Shown in pieces: positions 1,400 through 63,903 of a stretch of 64,000 nucleotides of DNA (position 1 is its first letter; every line of letters starts with the position of its first letter). The translations under genes and the position numbers were made by a program. The notes under the pieces were generated by a model. The model saw only the letters and a program-made list of their open reading frames with translations, was not told where the DNA came from and did no database searches. The stretch is from Octopus vulgaris (Eukaryota): contig OX597825.1 of NCBI GenBank assembly GCA_951406725.2, positions 16,492,001 through 16,556,000 of the forward strand. Reading direction: 5' to 3'.

Positions 1400-1487
1400 G
1401 AGTTAAAACATTTATTTCAAAATGCCTGACACCTGTTGCGATAAAACTTAAAAGGAACTGGTGAAGAATTAGAATGAAATGAACTGA
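1400..1487 (-). repeat. Left arm of ~87-bp inverted repeat pairing with 3001-3087
   Basis: gttaaaacatttatttcaaaatgcctgacacctgttgc...gaaatgaact is the reverse complement of agttcatttcattc...gtgtcaggcattttgaaataaatgtcttaac with few mismatches. Confidence 0.9.
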
Positions 1488-1519
1488 TACACACTCACAC
1501 ACATACACAAACATACGTG

Positions 1520-1724
1520 TGACCATGTGTATACCGTTGGCGATTATTTTTTTTCCTCTGTCTTCCCTTCTTTGGATCTTTCCTTCTCCTATGTTTCGAC
1601 GAAGAGCTCCGCTCGAAACGTTAAACCCTCTTTCTTTCCCTCTTTCCTGAGCGTCCAATAATACTATATTTGTTCCACGTCCTCGCGTTGTTGTGTTTTT
1701 TTGTGCTTTCTTGTTTGGATTAAC

Positions 1725-1726
<2 letters not shown>
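1520..1726 (+). mobile_element. Short non-coding interspersed element (putative Penelope-like pLTR derivative) with minimal hammerhead-like motif at 1593-1626
   Basis: Second copy at 40307-40486 (-); contains gtttCGACGAA-GAGCtccGCTC-GAAACGTT-aaac; ends in (TA)n. Confidence 0.7.
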
Positions 1727-1763
<37 letters not shown>

Positions 1764-1794
1764 ATGTACGTATGTATGTATGTATGTATGTATG

Positions 1795-1828
<34 letters not shown>

Positions 1829-1949
1829 ATGTATATATATATATTATGTATCTATTCCGAAGCTTATTGGTAGAGAGAGGGAGAGAGAGAGAGAGGAAGA
1901 GGGAGAGTGAAAGAGAGAGTATGTGTATGTATCGCATGAATATGCGAGT

Positions 1950-2199
1950 GAATGGTGTCCAGTGTCTCGTCTTCGGCACTCCACGAACACCTGGCATTCA
2001 CTGTGACTGATTCCACTTGGATGTGCAGGCATTTAAAACGGAGCGATATAAATCCTTATGCATTTCTTTGTCCTCTTTCTTTCCTTTTACGATCCCTTTT
2101 GATCGAAAACCAACCCCCTCTTTTTTACCCCCAAAAGAAAAGCTCTACTTTGTAATTTGTTCTGTCTGTGTGCAGCCCTGTGTGGCTAATAAAGAAACA

Positions 2200-2200
<1 letters not shown>
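1950..2200 (+). mobile_element. LINE 3-prime remnant(s) with a 3-prime tail resembling SINE family A
   Basis: Degenerate STNTWHSL / LDVQAFKTE (CR1/Jockey-type RT C-terminus-like); tail tctgtgtgcagccctgtgtggctaataaagaaa resembles SINE A tail tctgtgtttagccccttgtgggcaataaagaaa. Confidence 0.45.
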
Positions 2201-2283
<83 letters not shown>

Positions 2284-2674
2284 CATCTATCTATCTATTT
2301 ATCTATATATCTCTCTATCTCTCTATCTATCATTCTAAGAAACTCGTCTGCACTATTTTCTTATTTTACTCATCTCTCTCTTCCTTTATCCCTGTACATA
2401 TCAGTATGATATAAATGTTAATATGTACTCATACATGTATATATATATATATATACATATATATTTCTAAGAAAAAAAAACACTTACAATACATACTTAT
2501 TTTTTAATCAAAATATTTAATAAAAGTTACGATAAATGTATTAGCTATGATAAATGTATTATGATTAATGACACTGAATATATAAAAAAAATGAGGCTAA
2601 ATAATTTTTTTGTGCTAATAATTTTAATGAATTAAGTATTATAGCATTCATGTGATACTTACTTTCGCCTTCCC

Positions 2675-2758
<84 letters not shown>

Positions 2759-2803
2759 GTATATATATATGTATATATATTACATACATACATATATATA
2801 TAT

Positions 2804-2842
<39 letters not shown>

Positions 2843-2895
2843 CTGAAACAAGAAAAATTAAAACAAGTAAGAAAGAAAAAATATGAAAATAAAAA

Positions 2896-2926
<31 letters not shown>

Positions 2927-2942
2927 CATACAAATATGTATG

Positions 2943-2987
<45 letters not shown>

Positions 2988-3000
2988 GTATGTGTGTGTA

Positions 3001-3087
3001 TTAGTTCATTTCATTCTAATACTGCGCCAGTTCCTTTTAAGTTTTATTGCAACAGGTGTCAGGCATTTTGAAATAAATGTCTTAACT
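3001..3087 (+). repeat. Right arm of inverted repeat pairing with 1400-1487
   Basis: Reverse-complement match seen directly. Confidence 0.9.
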
Positions 3088-19805: not shown

Positions 19806-20165
19806 AGTGGTTGTATACTCTCAACATAACGTGACAGTCCCGTAAGGGAATTACACCACCGCTGTTTAGCCCTAGGAAGCATCGACGCTTCCTGTCGGCT
19901 TTGACACAATTCCTGTGTCCTTATATTTGCGAAGGGGAGGCAATCGCCCCCACCAGCTAGGATTCACACACTGCATGTTTCTGAGTCTTAACCCGTCATC
20001 AGCCCAGGATAGTGAGATCTGTTGATTGAGATGCCTGTCTAGCCTTCGCGTACATATTTAGTTTTTGGATTTGGTTTGCAAGATTCTTTATGTGAGTTCA
20101 TGTGTTGAATCATATTCTGTTGTGTCTGGGGAGAGTCATTTTCTTTTGGTACCTTATAATTTAAT
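19806..20165 (-). mobile_element. Structured non-coding element with hammerhead-like motif (19957-20007); 20058-20165 shared with 26990-27095
   Basis: CTGATGA-cGGGTtaagACTCa-GAAA core plus several short hairpins; sequence match to the 27-kb foldback insertion. Confidence 0.55.
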
Positions 20166-20824
20166 AAGGTAAAGGATAAGGTAAAGGATGATTCGTCGAA
20201 GAAAAAACATTCTTCCACTGCTCTAAGGACCAATTCTGTAGGTTTTTATTCCACTCTAAACGCTTTACAACGTTTGTTTTTGAAAGTAGTGGTTTTCTGA
20301 TTGCAGCCCTCTGTGCAGCTCCCGGCGAAAAGTTCTTTGTGGAAACTTGGCTCTCGAAGTGATCATTAAGCTCTGCAGTACTTTTGAGAGCTGTACTTTT
20401 GTGATCCTTTCTAACAATTCTCGTAAGAACCCGACGGTCCATATCTGAAAGTTTTGATTTTCTTCTGGAGTTTTGTTTCGACGAGGATGTTTTTCCCTCT
20501 TTCTCAAAGGCTGTCATTACTTTTGAGACAGTACTTCTTGATACATCAAACATTTCGGCTGTTTTCGTTACGCTAGCGCCTGCCATACGAGCACCAACAA
20601 TTTGACCCCTTTGAAAGTCTGATAGATCTATCATTTTAATGAACTTTAATTACCTTTTTCTGATGATATCTGAAAGCAAAACAGCAATTTTAGCAAAACA
20701 TATTAAGCAACACTAATGATAAATCAGAAAACATAAAAATAAACAAGCTTTTGACAGTTTTATAGATATTTCAAAATTATGATGCTATGATGCTAGGTGT
20801 TTCCATTATTTTGTACAACCCCTG
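20161..20824 (-). mobile_element. Tc1-like DNA transposon, 5-prime half with TIR and truncated transposase
   Basis: ORF 20634-20161 DLSDFQRGQIVGARMAGASVTKTAEMFDVSRSTVSKV (paired-type HTH), RKPLLS...RLEW...W.NVFF.DESSF across a frameshift; TIR caggggttgtacaaaataatggaaacacct at 20795-20824. Confidence 0.92.
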
Positions 20825-23525: not shown

Positions 23526-24102
23526 CGTATATATATATATATTACTCGGATTTTCAGAAATTTTGCATGACTGTATCCGAAAATTTCTTCACACAAGTTG
23601 ATCAAATATTCAATATGAGCTATATGTAGACATGCATAAATTCTATAGGTTTAAAACCTTTCATCGGATCTCCATGAATCGAACTTTCTTCAATGCAGTT
23701 AATCTTACAACCTCTTTTGTATCTACCCCTTTTGATGTTTGGGAATTCTCTGATATTTTTTCGGCTGACGAGTACGAGCCATCTGTATTCACTGCATTTT
23801 TTGTAGCTTATTAAAGATGTCCTCGTACGAAACGATCGTACCGAGATTTTAATCCATTCTTGTTGTTTTTTTCCTATTTGTAATCACCCCACTTGTCGTA
23901 TGGTTAACACCATATAGATTTCCGGTGCATCCTAGTTAAGGACCATATTCATGTGAATTCTTTAGAATTCACTAGAATCTCAATTACTTAACCGTATATA
24001 TACATATATATATAAATAAGGATAAGATCGTTAAATAAAAAATAAAATAACGATTTTATCAAGTGGTCAGCATGGAAAAAACACCCTTCAAAGGTAATTA
24101 TT

Positions 24103-24278
24103 ATTAAAATTATAAATTAGGGTATCTACGAGATACCACCACGCTGAAAATAGCAGCCATGATCTGACTTTAAAACCACCTAAATAGCTTATGGACAATT
24201 TAGGTGGTTTTAAAGTCAGATCGTTGTTGCTACTTTCAGCGTGGTGGTATCTCGTAGATACCCTAATTTATAACTTTA

Positions 24279-24280
<2 letters not shown>
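24103..24280. repeat. Fold-back palindrome, 83-bp arms, 12-nt loop, next to (TA)n
   Basis: Arms 24103-24185 and 24198-24280, 5 mismatches. Confidence 0.95.
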
Positions 24281-24316
<36 letters not shown>

Positions 24317-25820: not shown

Positions 25821-26587
25821 TGAAAGATCATTAAGATAGGAGTAGGATTGTGTGGACGTGAGAAAAGTCAGATCAACACAATGAAGAAATGTCAAAATTC
25901 AAACCAATTGAACCGGACATTGTGTGTGTGTGTGTGTTTGTCCGTGTAAGTATGTAATTGTGTGTGTATGTAATTGTGTATGTGCGGACGGTCGCTCACA
26001 CGCTTACGTGCTAGAGACTGTGTGTGCGTGGATTTCTATGCGTGCTTATGTGCGTGTGTTGGAAAGAAAGCATTTGTATATAGGTTAGTATATATGTATG
26101 TATGTGTGCGTGCGTGTGAGAGACGAAGTGGGCTAGTGTACATATGTGCATGTGTATGTACATGTATGTATGTGTAGTTCTCTCACTGCCCTCCACGCCA
26201 TGTCGATCGCCGTCCATTTCGGGATTAAAAAGACAAAAAACAAAAAGAAAACAAGCAGAAAACGGACTTAAAACAATGAAAAAAATATAAATAAAATATC
26301 AACGAATTAATCATAAAACAAAATGCAATTAAAACCATCACTGTTGTGATAATAATTAACTCTTACCACACAGCTTGTGTGATGTGAAAGCATTGCACCG
26401 AGATGACTGAAACATAATCGCCATTTGTCAGAGGTTATACGCATACTGCACGTATATCACACACGTTACAACAACCCCAGACGGTGAGGCACTATGAGGT
26501 CGGTCAATTTGCCTGAGCGAAAAACCAAATCTCATTTAAATAATGCTGTACTATCGCACAAATTGAACGTTACAACATAATTTGAGA

Positions 26588-27570
26588 TATTAGGTTGGAA
26601 AGAAGCTCTTGTCGCATTTAAGACATGATTATATCCAGCGTACTTTCTCAATATTTACAGTAAAATAATGTGATTTTGCGTCTTTGTAGATTAATCTATA
26701 CCAATGTGGTTAAATTATATCGATTTTGTTCTTTTTAAATGAATTATGATCAGACTCATATGAAACTGCATGAGGTATGAATTCAAAATGGACACTTCAG
26801 CGACGGAAGCGGCAATAAATAGTCATTCTGTTTATGGAAATGAAGCTTCAGGTTTCCGGACATGCCAACGATGGTTTCTAGTTTCGGTCCTTACTCTAGA
26901 CTCTCCTATCCTTGCTTCAGCTGACTTCATCCTTCATCCTTTCAGATCATAGTAATCATTATTTAGAGAATAACAGTTTATTAACTTTCGTTTTTAGATT
27001 TGGTTTGCAAGATTCATTATATAAGTTCGTGTGTTGAATCATATTCTGTTGTGTCTGGGGAGAGTCATTTTCTTTTTGTGCCTTATAATGTAACACACTC
27101 ACCGGTAAAATTTCCATTTTTTTCTTATTTTTATTTTCCTAAAATTTTCGTTGCGTTTTGCAACCTTTTCAATAGTCGTGACTCTTGTCAAGGCTAGTCA
27201 AGACTATTGAAAAGGTTGCAAGACGCAACGAAAATTTTAGGAAAATAAAAATAAGAAAAAAGTGGAAATTTTACCGGTGAGTGTGTTAAATAATAAGGCA
27301 CTAAAAGAAAATGACTCTCCCAGACACAACAGTTTATTAACTGTCAAGACATTAAAAAAGATATAGTAAAAATATAGTAGCTTTTTTTGCTTCGAAATCT
27401 GAAGGATTTTATGTCCGAGGAATTAACAATTTGGCGAAATAGATGGGTTTACGTCATCAATACGTTGGGTAAATATTATCTTGATTAAGTATATCAATGA
27501 ACATCAAAGAAGCATACGTTTCTTTCTCATCTTAAAATGCGACATCTTAAAATTTCTTTCTAACCTAGAT
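26588..27570 (+). mobile_element. Internally deleted mariner element with both TIRs
   Basis: TIRs ttaggttggaaagaag..tgtcgcattt / aaatgcgaca..tttctttctaaccta; N-terminus MRYEFK..SATEAA..SVYG..RTCQRWF; degenerate YSPDLAPSDFHLF-like; C-terminus FFASKSEGFYVRGI..RW..I..GKYYLD*. Confidence 0.88.
26987..27332. mobile_element. Fold-back insertion with 15-bp TSD inside the mariner ORF
   Basis: TSD aacagtttattaact at 26972-26986 and 27328-27342; arms 27046-27183 and 27196-27332. Confidence 0.9.
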
Positions 27571-33424: not shown

Positions 33425-33660
33425 TATTTCTTTATTACCCACAAGGGGCTAAACACAGAGTGGACAAACAAGGACAGACATAGGTATTAAGTCGATTACA
33501 TCGACCCCAGTGCGTAACTGGTACTTAATTTATCGACCCCGAAAGGATGAAAGGCAAACGCGACCTCGGCGGAATTTGAACTCACAACGTAACGCAGACG
33601 AAATACCGCTAAGCATTTCGCCCGGCGTGCTAACGTTTCTGCCAGCTCGCCGCCAGCTCG
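33425..33660 (-). mobile_element. SINE family A monomer with 14-bp TSD
   Basis: cccaattcattacc at 33411-33424 and 33661-33674. Confidence 0.93.
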
Positions 33661-33667
33661 CCCAATT

Positions 33668-34200
33668 CATTACCACAAGGGATTCGCACACTCGGTACTT
33701 CGACATCATTATGTCTCGTTAATTAATTACAACCAGAGCTTATGAATATAACAAGAGGTTTTACCTCTTGCTAATAACTTCAGATAACAAATGGATTGTT
33801 CTTGCGTTTTTTATATCTAGAAACATTGCTAAGTTTTGTAATAGTAAATTGTAATTAGTTCAACATGGTAGCACCTTACTTGTACCTATTTAGTTTTTAT
33901 TAAAGCTAGTGAGGTGTACTGCTAAGTTGAAGACATTACCACGAGCGATATGGACAATCGGTATTTCGACATCATTGTGTCTAGTTAGTAAAATGCAACC
34001 GAGACTAACGAATTGAACAAGAGGTTGTAGCTCTTGTTTATTACTTCAGCTAACAAATAGACGCCTGTTGCGTCTGTTTAATCTAGGAACCACGCTAACG
34101 TTTGTAATTGTAAATTGTAATCAATTCGACTTGATACCGCAGGTTATTGGTACTTATTTGATTCCAGTCAAATCTGGTGACTTGTATGACTAAGGTGAAA
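33668..34200. repeat. Diverged tandem duplication, ~267-bp period
   Basis: cattaccac...cggtayttcgacatcatt...aacaagaggtt...gtaaattgtaat repeated from ~33668 and ~33934. Confidence 0.85.
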
Positions 34201-34322
34201 TCAGCCATGGTTAAATTCAGAATGCGCAAAGAAATTTAATACGGAATGAATTCAGCGAAACTTCCACTGTTTCCGCTTTAATTATAATCAATAATCAAAG
34301 ATTTCAATCTATATGCCCTACA

Positions 34323-34532
34323 AGGTGACGAGCTTGCAGAATCGGTATTACGCCGGGCAAAATACTTAGTGGTATTTCACCTGTCTTTACGTTCCGAGTT
34401 CAAATTCTGCCGAGGTCGACTCTGCCTTTCATTATTTCGGGACCGATAAAATAAGTACCAGTTGAACACCTTGATCGATGTAATCGACCTTAGCCCCACG
34501 GAAAGCTGAGGACCTTGAGCCCAAATTTGAAA

Positions 34533-48117: not shown

Positions 48118-48646
48118 CATACACGCACTCATACACACATACACACAGCTATATATACATTCCCCACAAAAGATAGAACGGAAGGTTAGCGGCAGATGGA
48201 CTGAGAGCGCATAGAGTGCGACAGGAAGTGAAGGGGACAGTGATTGAAGAGAGGAGCCGGTGGTGCAATATGGAGTAGTAGGAGGAAACAGACGCGTAGT
48301 TTGAAAAATGTTCAACAAAAGCTACTGTATTGCCTGTGACAGAAGACATGACAAATTGAAATGTGTTTCTCTTCTGAAAGAGGGAATGTTACGGGGGAGA
48401 GAACGGGAGAAAGTAATGCAATTGTGGGTGAAGGAATGCAGCGCAAGGAAGAGGAGGTTTATATATGTTATATAGGTGTATATGTATGTATGTATGTACG
48501 AAATTGAAATGTATGAATGTGTGTATGTGTGTATACATATACATATATATTTATATTCATATACATTGATATTCATATACATGCATACATATGTACACAC
48601 GCACACATACACATATATATATATACATATATATCTGTATATAAGA

Positions 48647-48688
<42 letters not shown>

Positions 48689-48689
48689 C

Positions 48690-48845
48690 TTACTCTTTTA
48701 CTTGTTTCAGTCATTTGACTGTGGTCATGCTAGAGCACCGTCTTTTAGTCGAGCAAATCGACCCCAGGACTTATTCTTTGTAAGCCTAGTACTTATTCTA
48801 TCGATATCTTTTGCCGAACTACTAAGTAACGGGGACATAAACACA

Positions 48846-48880
<35 letters not shown>

Positions 48881-49062
48881 TGTGTGTCTGTGTTTGTCCC
48901 CACCACCATCACTTGACAACCGATGCTGGTGTGTGATTACGTCCCTGTTACTTAGTGTTTCAGCAAAAGAAACCGATAGAATAAGTCCTAGGGTCGATTT
49001 GTTCGACTACAGGCGATGCTCCAGCATGGCCGATGTGAAATGACTGCAACAAGTAAAAGGAA
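48690..49062. mobile_element. Two SINE family B 3-prime halves in inverted orientation around (TA)n
   Basis: 48690-48848 (-) and 48877-49062 (+). Confidence 0.85.
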
Positions 49063-49153
49063 AAAGAATGTATTCATGCATATATCTCGATATGCATAGG
49101 TATATATCGCTATCTTTATATGCATACGCACATATACATACATGCAAATAGAG

Positions 49154-49185
<32 letters not shown>

Positions 49186-49284
49186 TCTAAATATGTATGC
49201 ATGTATGTATATATGTATGAATGTATGTATCACTGTATGTATGTGTGTATGCATGAATACATACATACGTGTGTGTGCATGAAT

Positions 49285-53799: not shown

Positions 53800-54240
53800 G
53801 ACATCCTGCAATAATTAATTCATAGGAAAATGCGAATCGTGTATTACTGATGTTTTTTTAATAGCCTGTTTAGCAGTGGCTTGTAATTCTTTCGTAAGCA
53901 GACTTACATTATTAATTCTTGTTTGGTCTGAAGTATTGTCTGCACATTAATAGAATGGAAGACAATAAATTTGTGAGACTTGATTTTCACGTAAGTTCCA
54001 GATGCTAAATGGAATTTGTCTAGTTTTCGGATCACGTATTTGTTGACGATAAATGTTTAATCTCATCCATGCAAGTTTAGTTTGTCCAATGTAATCTTCC
54101 CTGCATCCACTACATTTGAGGACATATAGTAATTTTAATGAACAACCGGCATAATGGTTCTTCACAGTAATAACATGTCCTTACTTAAATTTATAAGACT
54201 TTGGTTGCCATTTGCATTTGATTAATTTGTATGATTCAAA
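53800..54240 (-). mobile_element. Penelope-like GIY-YIG endonuclease remnant
   Basis: ORF 54165-53947 CSLKLLYVLKCSGCREDYIGQT..RLNIYRQQIRDP. Confidence 0.88.
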
Positions 54241-55954: not shown

Positions 55955-56916
<962 letters not shown>

Positions 56917-57224
56917 TATATATAAGCTCGATTTGTTCGTAATTTAACCACTGAAACGTAGAAATATATACGTCAGTAAGATCACTGAGGACACAAGTCA
57001 GCATCATCAGTGATAGAAATAACTGTTAAAACAACTTATAGCCACAAAAAGAACTTTATCTTAATGACTGACAAGCGAGGCGCTGACGGAGCTTGCATCC
57101 CTGGTCAGTCTTTAAGTTCTTTTTATGGCTATCAGTTGTTTTATCTCTTATTTCGAGCAATACTGGTGTTGACTAGTGTTCTTAGCCACCTTAGTGACAT
57201 CTCTCTCTCTCTCTCTTGGATCGT

Positions 57225-57404
57225 TAGCCCCTACACGCAATTGGTTTCTCTCCTTGTTTCTTTTCTGTGTATCTTTCTGTCGAAGAGCGTAGGCTCGAAA
57301 CATAAAAGACTTGTTTTATTTCTATTCCCGAGCGCCAGGCTAATACATTCTTTGTTTGTACTCCACCTGCCTTCGTCTTTTGTTTATTTTCGTAAACCTT
57401 CCCG

Positions 57405-60722: not shown

Positions 60723-60791
<69 letters not shown>

Positions 60792-60796
<5 letters not shown>

Positions 60797-61001
60797 TGGC
60801 AGGGCTTACTGCTAGGGAGTCGGCCGTATGCTAGAAATAGATCATCAACGATCAAACTACAAGGAAATTCTCTAGAGGAAAAATACAGTTGGTTCTGGTG
60901 TTCGCTGTATTTTTCCTCTAGAGAATTTCCTTGTAGTTTGATCGTTGATGATCTATTTCTAGTATACGGCCGATTCCCTAGCAGTAAGCCCTGCCAATAT
61001 A
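60792..61001. repeat. Near-perfect fold-back palindrome, 97-bp arms, 16-nt loop, in (TA)n
   Basis: Arms 60792-60888 and 60905-61001, 2 mismatches. Confidence 0.97.
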
Positions 61002-62996
61002 CACATATATTAGAATTTTCTCTGACTTCTCAGATTTTTGTATGCTGGACTACTGGTTTTAAATTGATATTAAAATTAATATTAATTTATCTCCCTCATT
61101 ATTTAAATATATATATGTATATGTATATACATGCATTTATATATATATACATGTAAACTGCGATAGATATATTGATAGATAAAGAGAGATAGAATATAAG
61201 AGAGAGAGAGAGAGAAACGGGACAACTCCTAAATGAATGAAACCCTTCACTACTATATAAGAATTCAGTACAAATTCATAGGTGAAATAGTGTTGCAGCC
61301 CCCATCCCGGAAGAAAATACATGATCGACACGCAAAATGGTATCGTGAAGCAGAACACTTTTTGAAATGTTCAAATATCTTTGGGACGCTTGTTGTCTAA
61401 TACTGACAAAAGTATGAAGAACACAAAAGAACACATTATGTCGGAGAGGGCGCTTCAAAATGACTTCGGGATTTTACACCTTTTGCGTGAAGACAGAATG
61501 TTTCCTCAAGACAAACCACAATGAGAATGGCCTTTTAACAGTTACAGTTCAAACATACCCGCAAAGTATTTGAATTGAGCGAAAATTTTGTTTATTCCAC
61601 AACACTGATTAACGTGCCAACCATGTAAAATATTTTGTAATTCTGAAATAGAATTCTTAAATCAAACTTTACCTTACGGAATATCAGTAATTCTGCAGTA
61701 AATTGTTTAATAGGTTTTCCAATAAATGTATTTATAGTTCTCACCGGAGAGCTATCATCGAAATATATTTTTTGAAAACTAATTATTTCCTAGAAAAAAA
61801 AAACAGAGACACATTTTAGTCAATGATTCTGGTGTCTAAATACTTATACATGAAAGGTCACTACTATCTAGCAATTACAGTCAACGGGGAAACTACAAAA
61901 AAAGATTGACACTATTTCTCTAGAAGTAATTGTGTGTAATCCAATATGCGAATATATGCTAAAATGTTGAAGCTTACTGACCATTATATTCTACATTTTT
62001 TCATGAGTTCAAACATTTATTATACGGTTTGTATAGAGATGGCGGGTCCATTGCTACATGTAATATGAAAGCTCAGCAATAAGATGAACTCGTAACAAAT
62101 CTCTGTGGTATTTAAATTTTTGCGGTTGATAGAAACTTACATGTTATGAATTTTGCATGTATTACTTAAAATTAGAATCTAATAAATGCGAATTACCCAT
62201 TCGGAAAGCCAACAGATAAGTTAATGTGTATAAAGATTAATAATATTCTAATAAAAAATGTTAATATAACACAATACCGGATTCCATCTGATATATTTTC
62301 TATCAACAAAACAAATCCTTGTTATGTTGATGAAATTTAGATTCCCATAAATAACAATAATGGTGATGATAATGATAACGCTGATGATGATGACGACGAT
62401 GATGACGATGAGAACGATGACGACGGTAATGATTACGGCGGTGACGAAGGTAAGGATGATGATGATGATGAGGATGATAGTGATGATGCTGATATATCTC
62501 AGACAGATAAAACTGAAAAACTTATAATTGTTTGGATTAATATTCCGTTTTACATAAATATACAGAGACGTATAGCTAGCCATGTTTTTTTTTAATTAGA
62601 AAAAACATTTTCCCAAATATCATAAATGGAATGAAATTTATACTAGAAATAATATAACATTAAGATTCAGCTGCACATGAAATATTCCAATAAAAGTAGC
62701 AAGAATAAATAAAAAAATAAAAGAAAAAAAGTAGGCCGCTATTTCAAATTATTCCCCTTTGTGTAATTATTCTAACCCTGTAAAATGCCCATAAATGATT
62801 TATGTCTTTCGAAAGAGATCGTTTATTTTGTGAAAGTATTTACATCTAATGATTTAATCAGCAGTATATCCAGAGGAATATACTGAAGCAAATTTGTCAA
62901 AATATACCTTGTCTATAAAAAAAAGATCAAAACCTATAACCTCATTTGTAAGGTATTAGAATACATCTAATCATTAGAGCTGATATATTTGTCGCC

Positions 62997-63260
<264 letters not shown>

Positions 63261-63903
63261 AATGCCCTGATGCAGTACCAGACACTGGCTCTCATGGCTT
63301 CTGATCTTAACTGATTGGAAGTGTTATCATGTACATTGTTTTGTCTTGGTATAAAAGATGGGCTACAGCAAATATTCAGCTCAATACCACAGATTTGCTT
63401 GTCAGTTGTTTGACCATAACCAGTTGACCATGTGTCTTAGTAGCTGACGATCTGTGCACCTCTGATCACAAGCAGAAGTAGTGGTGGAGTATCATAGTCA
63501 TGTGTTGAAAGGAATTCTTAGAGGTTTGGATAATTCACCTTTGGAAACATGGGTGGTTCGTTCAATATCCTTAAATAATCCTTATTCAGGGACCTTTTGA
63601 GCGGGATGGGTTACTCGACCAGAAGAAAATTCTAACTGGGCCCCACCTGCAATGTCATGTACTGTTTATCTTGACACGAGATCACCATGTCGTGCATATA
63701 TGGTTGTGATGCATGTACCTTGTGTATCCTTATCAGGTGCGTGGTCATGATAGTGGGCTTCGTATATCTGTAGTAATGAGCAAATCTGTAGTATTGAGCA
63801 GAATATTTGCTGTAGCCCATCTTTTATACTAACACAAAACATTTATTATTATTATTAATATTTTACCCCAGTGTCACTTTGATGGCATGCACTGCTCTCT
63901 CAT

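Follow-up and report, generated by a model that had tools for sequence, protein, structure and literature searches.

An insertion at positions 26987-27327 of the window, a 64,000-nt stretch of Octopus vulgaris DNA (contig OX597825.1), was almost certainly a 5'-truncated stub of a Penelope-like element (PLE), of which it retains the terminal ~199 bp. The family to which it belongs descends from this element, and is characterized by a fixed long end and a fixed short end, by target-site duplications (TSDs) of variable length at AT-rich sites, and by centres that are particular to each copy. As an inverted pLTR with a one-sided tail had already been published as the footprint of PLEs, the window insert was read as a new example of a known pattern. 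Added by the survey of copies are the pairing of one long with one short end, the subfamily letters that most arm pairs have in common, and the usually further reach of the short-end arm, which disfavour simple snap-back. Two nicked target strands that prime one RNA at two fixed sites, with the resulting cDNAs joined head to head, would probably account for the whole arrangement.

Structure of the insert and its host site

The insert was flanked by an exact 15-bp direct repeat (26972-26986 and 27328-27342). Next to the left repeat lay a one-sided tail of 59 unpaired bp (26987-27045, minus strand), which corresponded to codons ~9-27 of the parent ORF and continued unbroken into a direct arm of 138 bp (27046-27183, minus strand) comprising the 3' part of the pLTR and the ORF start, with the ATG at 27068. 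A head-to-head junction in the form of a 12-nt loop (27184-27195), peculiar to the window copy when centres were compared across copies, was followed by the inverted arm (27196-27327, plus strand; ATG at 27311). This arm carried the same part of the pLTR as the direct arm, up to the fixed short end, and measured 137 bp (27196-27332) when the AACAG shared with the duplication was included. These measurements agreed with the original description of an extension of ~60 bp joined to a hairpin with 138-bp arms and a 12-nt loop. The arms were mismatched at seven positions, and the hairpin fold had a z-score of -28.7, with none of 100 shuffles equally stable.

The first five bases of the right repeat (AACAG) matched the short end usual for the element and at the same time belonged to the target, which upheld the microhomology noted at the right junction. 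Because AACAG fits both, the duplication measures 15 bp with these bases counted as target and 10 bp with them counted as element. Several of the 19 mariner paralogues examined (L277, L278, L293 and L294 among them) had the matching motif once, with contiguous flanks; therefore, the repeat was a true TSD, as had been claimed, and AACAG was target sequence that also matched the element's end.

The host was a decayed, internally deleted mariner relic (26587-27568, plus strand), with pieces 69-88% identical to its paralogues. Its left flank encoded a Mos1-type HTH domain (PF17906, E 2.4e-9) with C-terminal sequence almost immediately after it, and the relic was short of its paralogues by roughly 600-1100 bp, catalytic core included. 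The insert had been proposed to interrupt a mariner ORF; the C-terminal sequence did come back into register across the insertion site, but the joined flanks held stops in all six frames and what was interrupted was a relic. An intact mariner transposase gene with a DDE/D core was rejected as the host on the same stops and on the absence of that core. A second copy of the family in the window (20057-20164, minus strand) consisted of a single arm (unit positions 1-108) without an inverted arm, and abutted a Tc1-like transposase relic with HTH domains (20161-20649), which it cut off. A transposase-like frame at 55957-56412 had no Pfam match.

Both arms carried a minimal-hammerhead-like motif, for which self-cleavage is putative, at 27139-27175 (direct arm, minus strand) and 27204-27240 (inverted arm, plus strand). 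The motif had a variant of the U3-A8 core, a bulge before helix II and a palindromic helix III. A U3-A8 core and a bulge before helix II are described for PLE hammerheads in PMC4209133, as are opposite-strand motif pairs 100-700 bp apart. A motif descriptor, composed post hoc after the motif had been seen, matched only the two arm sites within the window and none of 3000 shuffles. Rfam gave no hammerhead match, and the motif folded no better than shuffles. Arm ends showed a weak excess near the predicted cut (18/58, p 0.017), a comparison confounded by the palindrome located there. Elsewhere in the window, a repeat with a hammerhead-like core, recognized by eye (57270-57315), lay beside an old 71% palindrome (56972-57198).

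Parent element and sister family

The parent frame was reached via a longer copy (L033). In 23 of 29 loci, the unit lay 3' of a frame with RT and GIY-YIG domains and pointed the same way; it was inverted on the other side in 3/29 and absent in 3/29. The GIY-YIG domain scored over the cut-off (PF01541, E 1.7e-6), while RVT_1 fell below it (E 0.014) with a visible YVDD core. The last 82 nt of the insert (minus strand, from the ATG at 27068) encoded the first ~27 residues of the ORF and matched the N-terminus of a 1312-aa frame in a sister family, with which the parent was 60% identical over 547 aa. Sequence past the long end ran into further ORF codons in L151 and L214, and the ORF start was found at both ends of sister copies, giving the partial-tandem arrangement of a pLTR (seen in the window family in L151 and L214). 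The family showed the traits of EN+ PLEs, namely linkage to an RT/GIY-YIG frame, an inverted 5'-truncated copy with a one-sided tail, and a variable TSD at AT-rich sites.

Translations of the parent frame contained C-x4-C-xx-C ahead of the GIY-YIG core, plus CCHH residues, which matches the Neptune/Nematis-type linker (CX2-5CxxC with CCHH) as given in PMC8557442. Neptune/Nematis-type PLEs share this Cys linker and CCHH with the octopus parent and (TA)n targets with the sister family, a likeness in motifs and targets; the octopus elements differ from them in a long N-terminal extension, the sister frame reaching 1312 aa, and from Penelope/Poseidon, which are without a Cys-rich linker, in having one. 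The unit was absent from the genome's top 30 GIY-YIG loci (0/30), which belonged to other PLE families. Among 71 protein matches, none was a named reference PLE protein, and no Pfam domain was recognized in the 1312-aa frame of the sister family.

The sister family (1,589 long ends and 2,830 arm matches) targeted (TA)n, and its copies were 92-100% identical to the reference copy, so that the layout was seen near its birth. The short end lay at position 55 in all 12 loci, of 30, in which that end was in view, and the offset between long and short ends was 54-56 bp, as in the window family. Head-to-head copies reached kilobase scale, and coding copies had an identical layout. Inner ends of the long-end and short-end arms fell, for example, at 99/319, 284/278, 532/2552 and 242/1644, and the 532/2552 and 242/1644 nt arms occurred in copies that were 98-100% identical. 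Equal arms (278/278, 283/283, 835/835) were also present among the arm pairs surveyed. Young junctions overlapped by 1-13 nt in 13 of 18 cases, and 8 of 36 sister arm ends lay at 278-286.

Very young sister copies (L139-L146 and L237-L275, e.g., L140:782-4717) had intact 1312-aa frames in many cases. These frames had a long Asn-rich N-terminal part, and head-to-head insertions extended up to 5.8 kb. So young a family with intact frames is a good candidate for biochemistry. In the sister pLTR of L141, the inner stop near unit 283 lay just ahead of a CAAAATGGC motif resembling a YY1 site. A YY1 site sits just after the L1 RNA start, and by analogy the CAAAATGGC motif may hint at a transcription start at the sister inner stop. 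A second young PLE family (L067, L072 and others) had 781-aa frames with a Cys-rich linker; a hammerhead-like motif of its own lay ~70 bases short of the 3' end, and its DNA was unrelated to that of the insert. A fragment of the window at 54004-54180 resembled the GIY-YIG region of that family (40% identity, E 1e-9).

Ends, centres and arms across the family

The octopus genome (2.8 Gb) is rich in microsatellites, and the insert had 2247 candidates in it at first look. Exact matches, which are lower bounds, numbered at least 3,752 for a 25-base long-end pattern and at least 5,965 for an arm-internal pattern, with none for either reversed control. In a survey of 90 consecutive long ends on one contig, an inverted arm was found no more than 1150 bp away in 49, and no inverted partner was found within that distance in 41. 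The inverted arms of these pairs stopped at unit 51-64 in 47 of 49; two long-anchored pairs, ending at unit 1 and 13, were long/long-like. Direct arms ended at 211 or less in 75/90, short copies outnumbering long ones, and AT lay outside the long end in 65/90, partly templated by the element. With the 19 pairs that had microsatellite flanks removed from the 49, TSDs of at least 9 bp were present at 26 of the remaining 30 sites, compared to 4 of 293 mismatched flank pairs, and TSD lengths ranged from 9 to 18 bp with a mode of 12. Overlap at the short end was 0-6 nt in clean rows, among 26 rows with anchor errors in about a third.

The centres were copy-specific, with 29 of 30 distinct after a crude cut-out, and many of them resembled short templated duplications. 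Over a wider set of arms, ends clustered at unit 183-214 (55/137), with 17 beyond. The expectation of a constant hairpin centre with variable outer ends was thus reversed, as the outer ends were fixed and the centre varied. MITEs are recognized by symmetric terminal inverted repeats and a fixed short TSD. The termini here were asymmetric, offset by ~55 bp, and since TSD length was not fixed (9-18 bp), a MITE of the Tc1/mariner, hAT or similar type was excluded, in keeping with the retro-insertion that had been proposed instead.

An arm-anchored survey, blind to end type, yielded 31 distinct pairs (18 old and 13 young, with duplicates resolved by coordinates). Thirty of these were long/short, none was short/short and none long/long; the ratio was 27/28 once three doubtful spans of 71-74 bp were removed. 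At diagnostic site 84, 81 of 82 hairpins had the same letter in both arms, against an expected 66%; all four diagnostic sites matched in 39 of 58 hairpins, against an expected 18.5%. Divergence was 7.0% within hairpins versus 9.6% between them. This agreement of diagnostic letters meant that an origin of the arms from independent RNAs of different subfamilies largely failed. Gene conversion at a later time, or the use of two RNAs made from one master, could also account for the agreement. Arms were discordant at two or more linked sites in 6/58 hairpins, including the window copy, which was discordant at three of the four diagnostic sites, and this indicated that some hairpins came from two templates or underwent later conversion.

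The short-end arm reached more than 10 nt further in 22/47 old and 12/18 young pairs, and the long-end arm did so in 10 old and 2 young ones. Taken together, 34 of the 46 unequal pairs had the short-end arm as the one that went further on the RNA (p 0.002), and within the old family 22/32 did (p 0.05). Arm lengths were nevertheless correlated (rho 0.50, p 0.0003), with 15/47 pairs equal within 10 nt, and the idea of independent arm lengths was overstated given this correlation.

Proposed mechanism of integration and relation to known systems

In the mechanism that we favour, the GIY-YIG nuclease would nick both target strands 9-18 bp apart. One nicked 3' end would prime ~82 nt into the ORF and produce the long end, and the other would prime ~25 nt into the ORF and produce the short end; the start sites would lie ~55 bases apart on one RNA, and the tail would be the RNA between them. 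To our knowledge, PLEs have no RNase H domain, without which both enzymes could copy one RNA, with the enzyme at the short site ahead. Both cDNAs would run off at the RNA 5' end, giving a hard stop near unit ~199, or would stall earlier, and the two cDNA ends would then be joined head to head by microhomology with small fill-ins. The stub would be a dead-end product, made anew in each event. We tentatively extend this to PLEs at large, a step about which we are slightly more doubtful than confident: PLEs may integrate by obligate coupled double priming, in which one dimer and one RNA would give one start of each type per event and two overlapping cDNAs, and events primed at the start region's 5' copy would yield "strong-stop" stubs, the tens of thousands of octopus hairpins. 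If true, the tail, the head-to-head inversion and the TSD would all result from one mechanism; a single mechanism joining these three was not found stated in the literature searched. A short single-arm non-autonomous RNA could conceivably serve as the template.

The original inference that the hairpin arose during one retro-insertion held insofar as a PLE-type inverted terminal segment, made in a single event, was found; the self-copying fold-back was disfavoured, as the inverted arm often reached beyond the direct arm. In such a snap-back, the long-end cDNA would fold, be copied back to the short-end site and be joined to the target, with trimming leading to uneven centres, and PMC3846280 proposes a variant of it that is self-primed on an antisense template. 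Subfamily letters common to both arms, correlated and sometimes equal arm lengths, and the many centres that resemble short templated duplications are all consistent with it. Simple snap-back was nonetheless considered unlikely, because the inverted arm often carried sequence missing from the direct arm (in 12/18 of the young copies, which are nearly identical to one another, with a surplus of as much as 2 kb) and frequent one-sided loss ending at the centre would be required. It also leaves without a reason the coincidence of the fixed short end with the tail boundary, and cannot result in discordant arms such as those of the window copy. Discordance in six of 58 hairpins, together with widely different arm lengths, would be accommodated by two separate RNA-protein particles, each priming one of the two nicks with its own RNA. 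The agreement at site 84 speaks against two particles, which alone give no account of the strict long/short pairing or of the longer short-end arms, and we regard them as quite unlikely, although they would be viable if both RNAs came from one locus and the dimer were asymmetric.

A non-autonomous hairpin master, copied whole in the manner of a SINE or MITE and centrally deleted later, would fit the excess of short over long copies and of direct arms ending at 211 or less, and L001 and L014, both retrieved by likeness to the window copy, had the same discordant arm combination. Its copies would not be expected to have copy-specific centres, asymmetric termini and TSDs of 9-18 bp, or the same layout at kilobase scale in coding copies, and we find it very improbable. 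An assembly or library fold-back artefact can be virtually dismissed. The arms differ at seven sites, the TSD was confirmed by paralogues, and thousands of copies exist, each with its own flanks, all of which bore out the premise that the hairpin is real. Furthermore, both flanks are continued 9-28 bases into the insert in contigs from two other organisms; this is below the 31-base bridging threshold and is suggestive of a shared old insertion.

The favoured two-site mechanism can be set beside published PLEs. In Adineta, Penelope elements have an inverted pLTR, a one-sided tail, a pLTR over the first codons and TSDs of 8-10 bp, as PMC3846280 reports. Pen2a/Pen2 resemble the octopus family in an inverted 5'-truncated terminal copy, a tail at one end, a palindromic junction, and a pLTR that spans the first ORF codons with the tail reaching further. 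TSDs are 8-10 bp in Pen2a/Pen2 and 9-18 bp in the octopus family, whose commonest product, unlike that in Adineta, is a gene-less stub of 90-400 bp, present in thousands of copies and with a fixed hard 5' stop. The overview in PMC8557442 (Fig. 2) presents the inverted pLTR and one-sided tail as general for PLEs, and describes the origin of the inverted ends as still undefined; tails in published EN+ PLEs are 30-40 bp there, compared to 54-59 bp in the octopus family.

A PLE protein nicks and extends both strands in vitro, is predicted to be a dimer, and begins synthesis at two positions within the ORF start, one on either side of the tail (PMC11167929). Poseidon of Anolis (PAc), the element of that study, shares with the octopus family the two tail-bracketing starts within the ORF start, AT-rich targets and a hammerhead motif near the ORF start. 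Start sites lay at about +25 and +82 in the octopus family and at about +111-118 and a neighbouring site in PAc (PMC11167929), and the octopus hammerhead-like motif lay ~85 nt upstream of the ATG, unlike that of PAc. In the main-text in vitro data, start sites showed no difference between strands and pairing per molecule was not tested (PMC11167929), whereas octopus genomic pairs almost always had one of each start site. Strict long/short pairing and the arm-length bias make the open mechanistic question testable; the RNA coordinates named here are suited to the existing in vitro assay, and thousands of stubs together with near-identical full-length sister copies allow counts to separate the candidate mechanisms.

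In twin priming of L1, a second nick primes inside the RNA, which leads to an inverted segment within one TSD and a join by microhomology, and the product has non-overlapping segments, a variable internal priming site and a poly(A) end. The octopus inserts have the same inverted segment in one TSD and microhomology join, but their second priming site does not vary, the two cDNAs are copies of one and the same part of the RNA, so that it is duplicated and not just inverted, and the outcome is the rule and not a minority. An L1-type twin priming product was rejected, as the arms overlap by up to 140 bp, the site is fixed and there is no poly(A). Non-LTR retrozymes are likewise pLTR-derived, hammerhead-bearing, non-coding and of similar size according to 10.64898/2026.07.22.740005, which describes head-to-tail tandem arrays, whereas the octopus stub is head-to-head with a tail and TSD. 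A retrozyme was rejected because the window copy and 49/90 surveyed long ends were head-to-head.

A 2026 octopus repeat annotation lists 31 recently active Penelope-like families, their ends being undescribed in the portion available, and may hold the window family under some name. In annotation generally, PLE stubs can readily be mistaken for MITEs, SINEs or unknown repeats. Hairpins of this type would be double-stranded RNA if transcribed, and octopus is noted for its extensive RNA editing.

Other palindromes in the window had been suggested to have a like origin, and this was borne out in part. The 24102-24281 palindrome, of a second abundant family, had the same one-sided layout: its long end was fixed near 24012, its short end fell at 24097-24109 in all 25 loci retrieved by likeness, and (TA)n flanked it. 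At 60783-61010, an optional extension was on one side in the window, while other copies had it on the opposite side or on both; PLE coding sequence adjoined a copy of this family in L335/L337. Both fit the same origin as the window stub, which is unproven for them, and neither was linked as firmly to a parent element. The lopsided hairpin family of 24012-24281 had a ~90-bp one-sided extension, a fixed inner stop near 24185 and 2560 candidates, but a parent was looked for and not found, and the 60783-61110 hairpin, with its optional ~100-bp extension, had 1433 candidates. Further inverted-repeat pairs were present at 33491-34488, 1401-3087, 48533-49226, 63337-63841 and 3999-4425/15373-15799.
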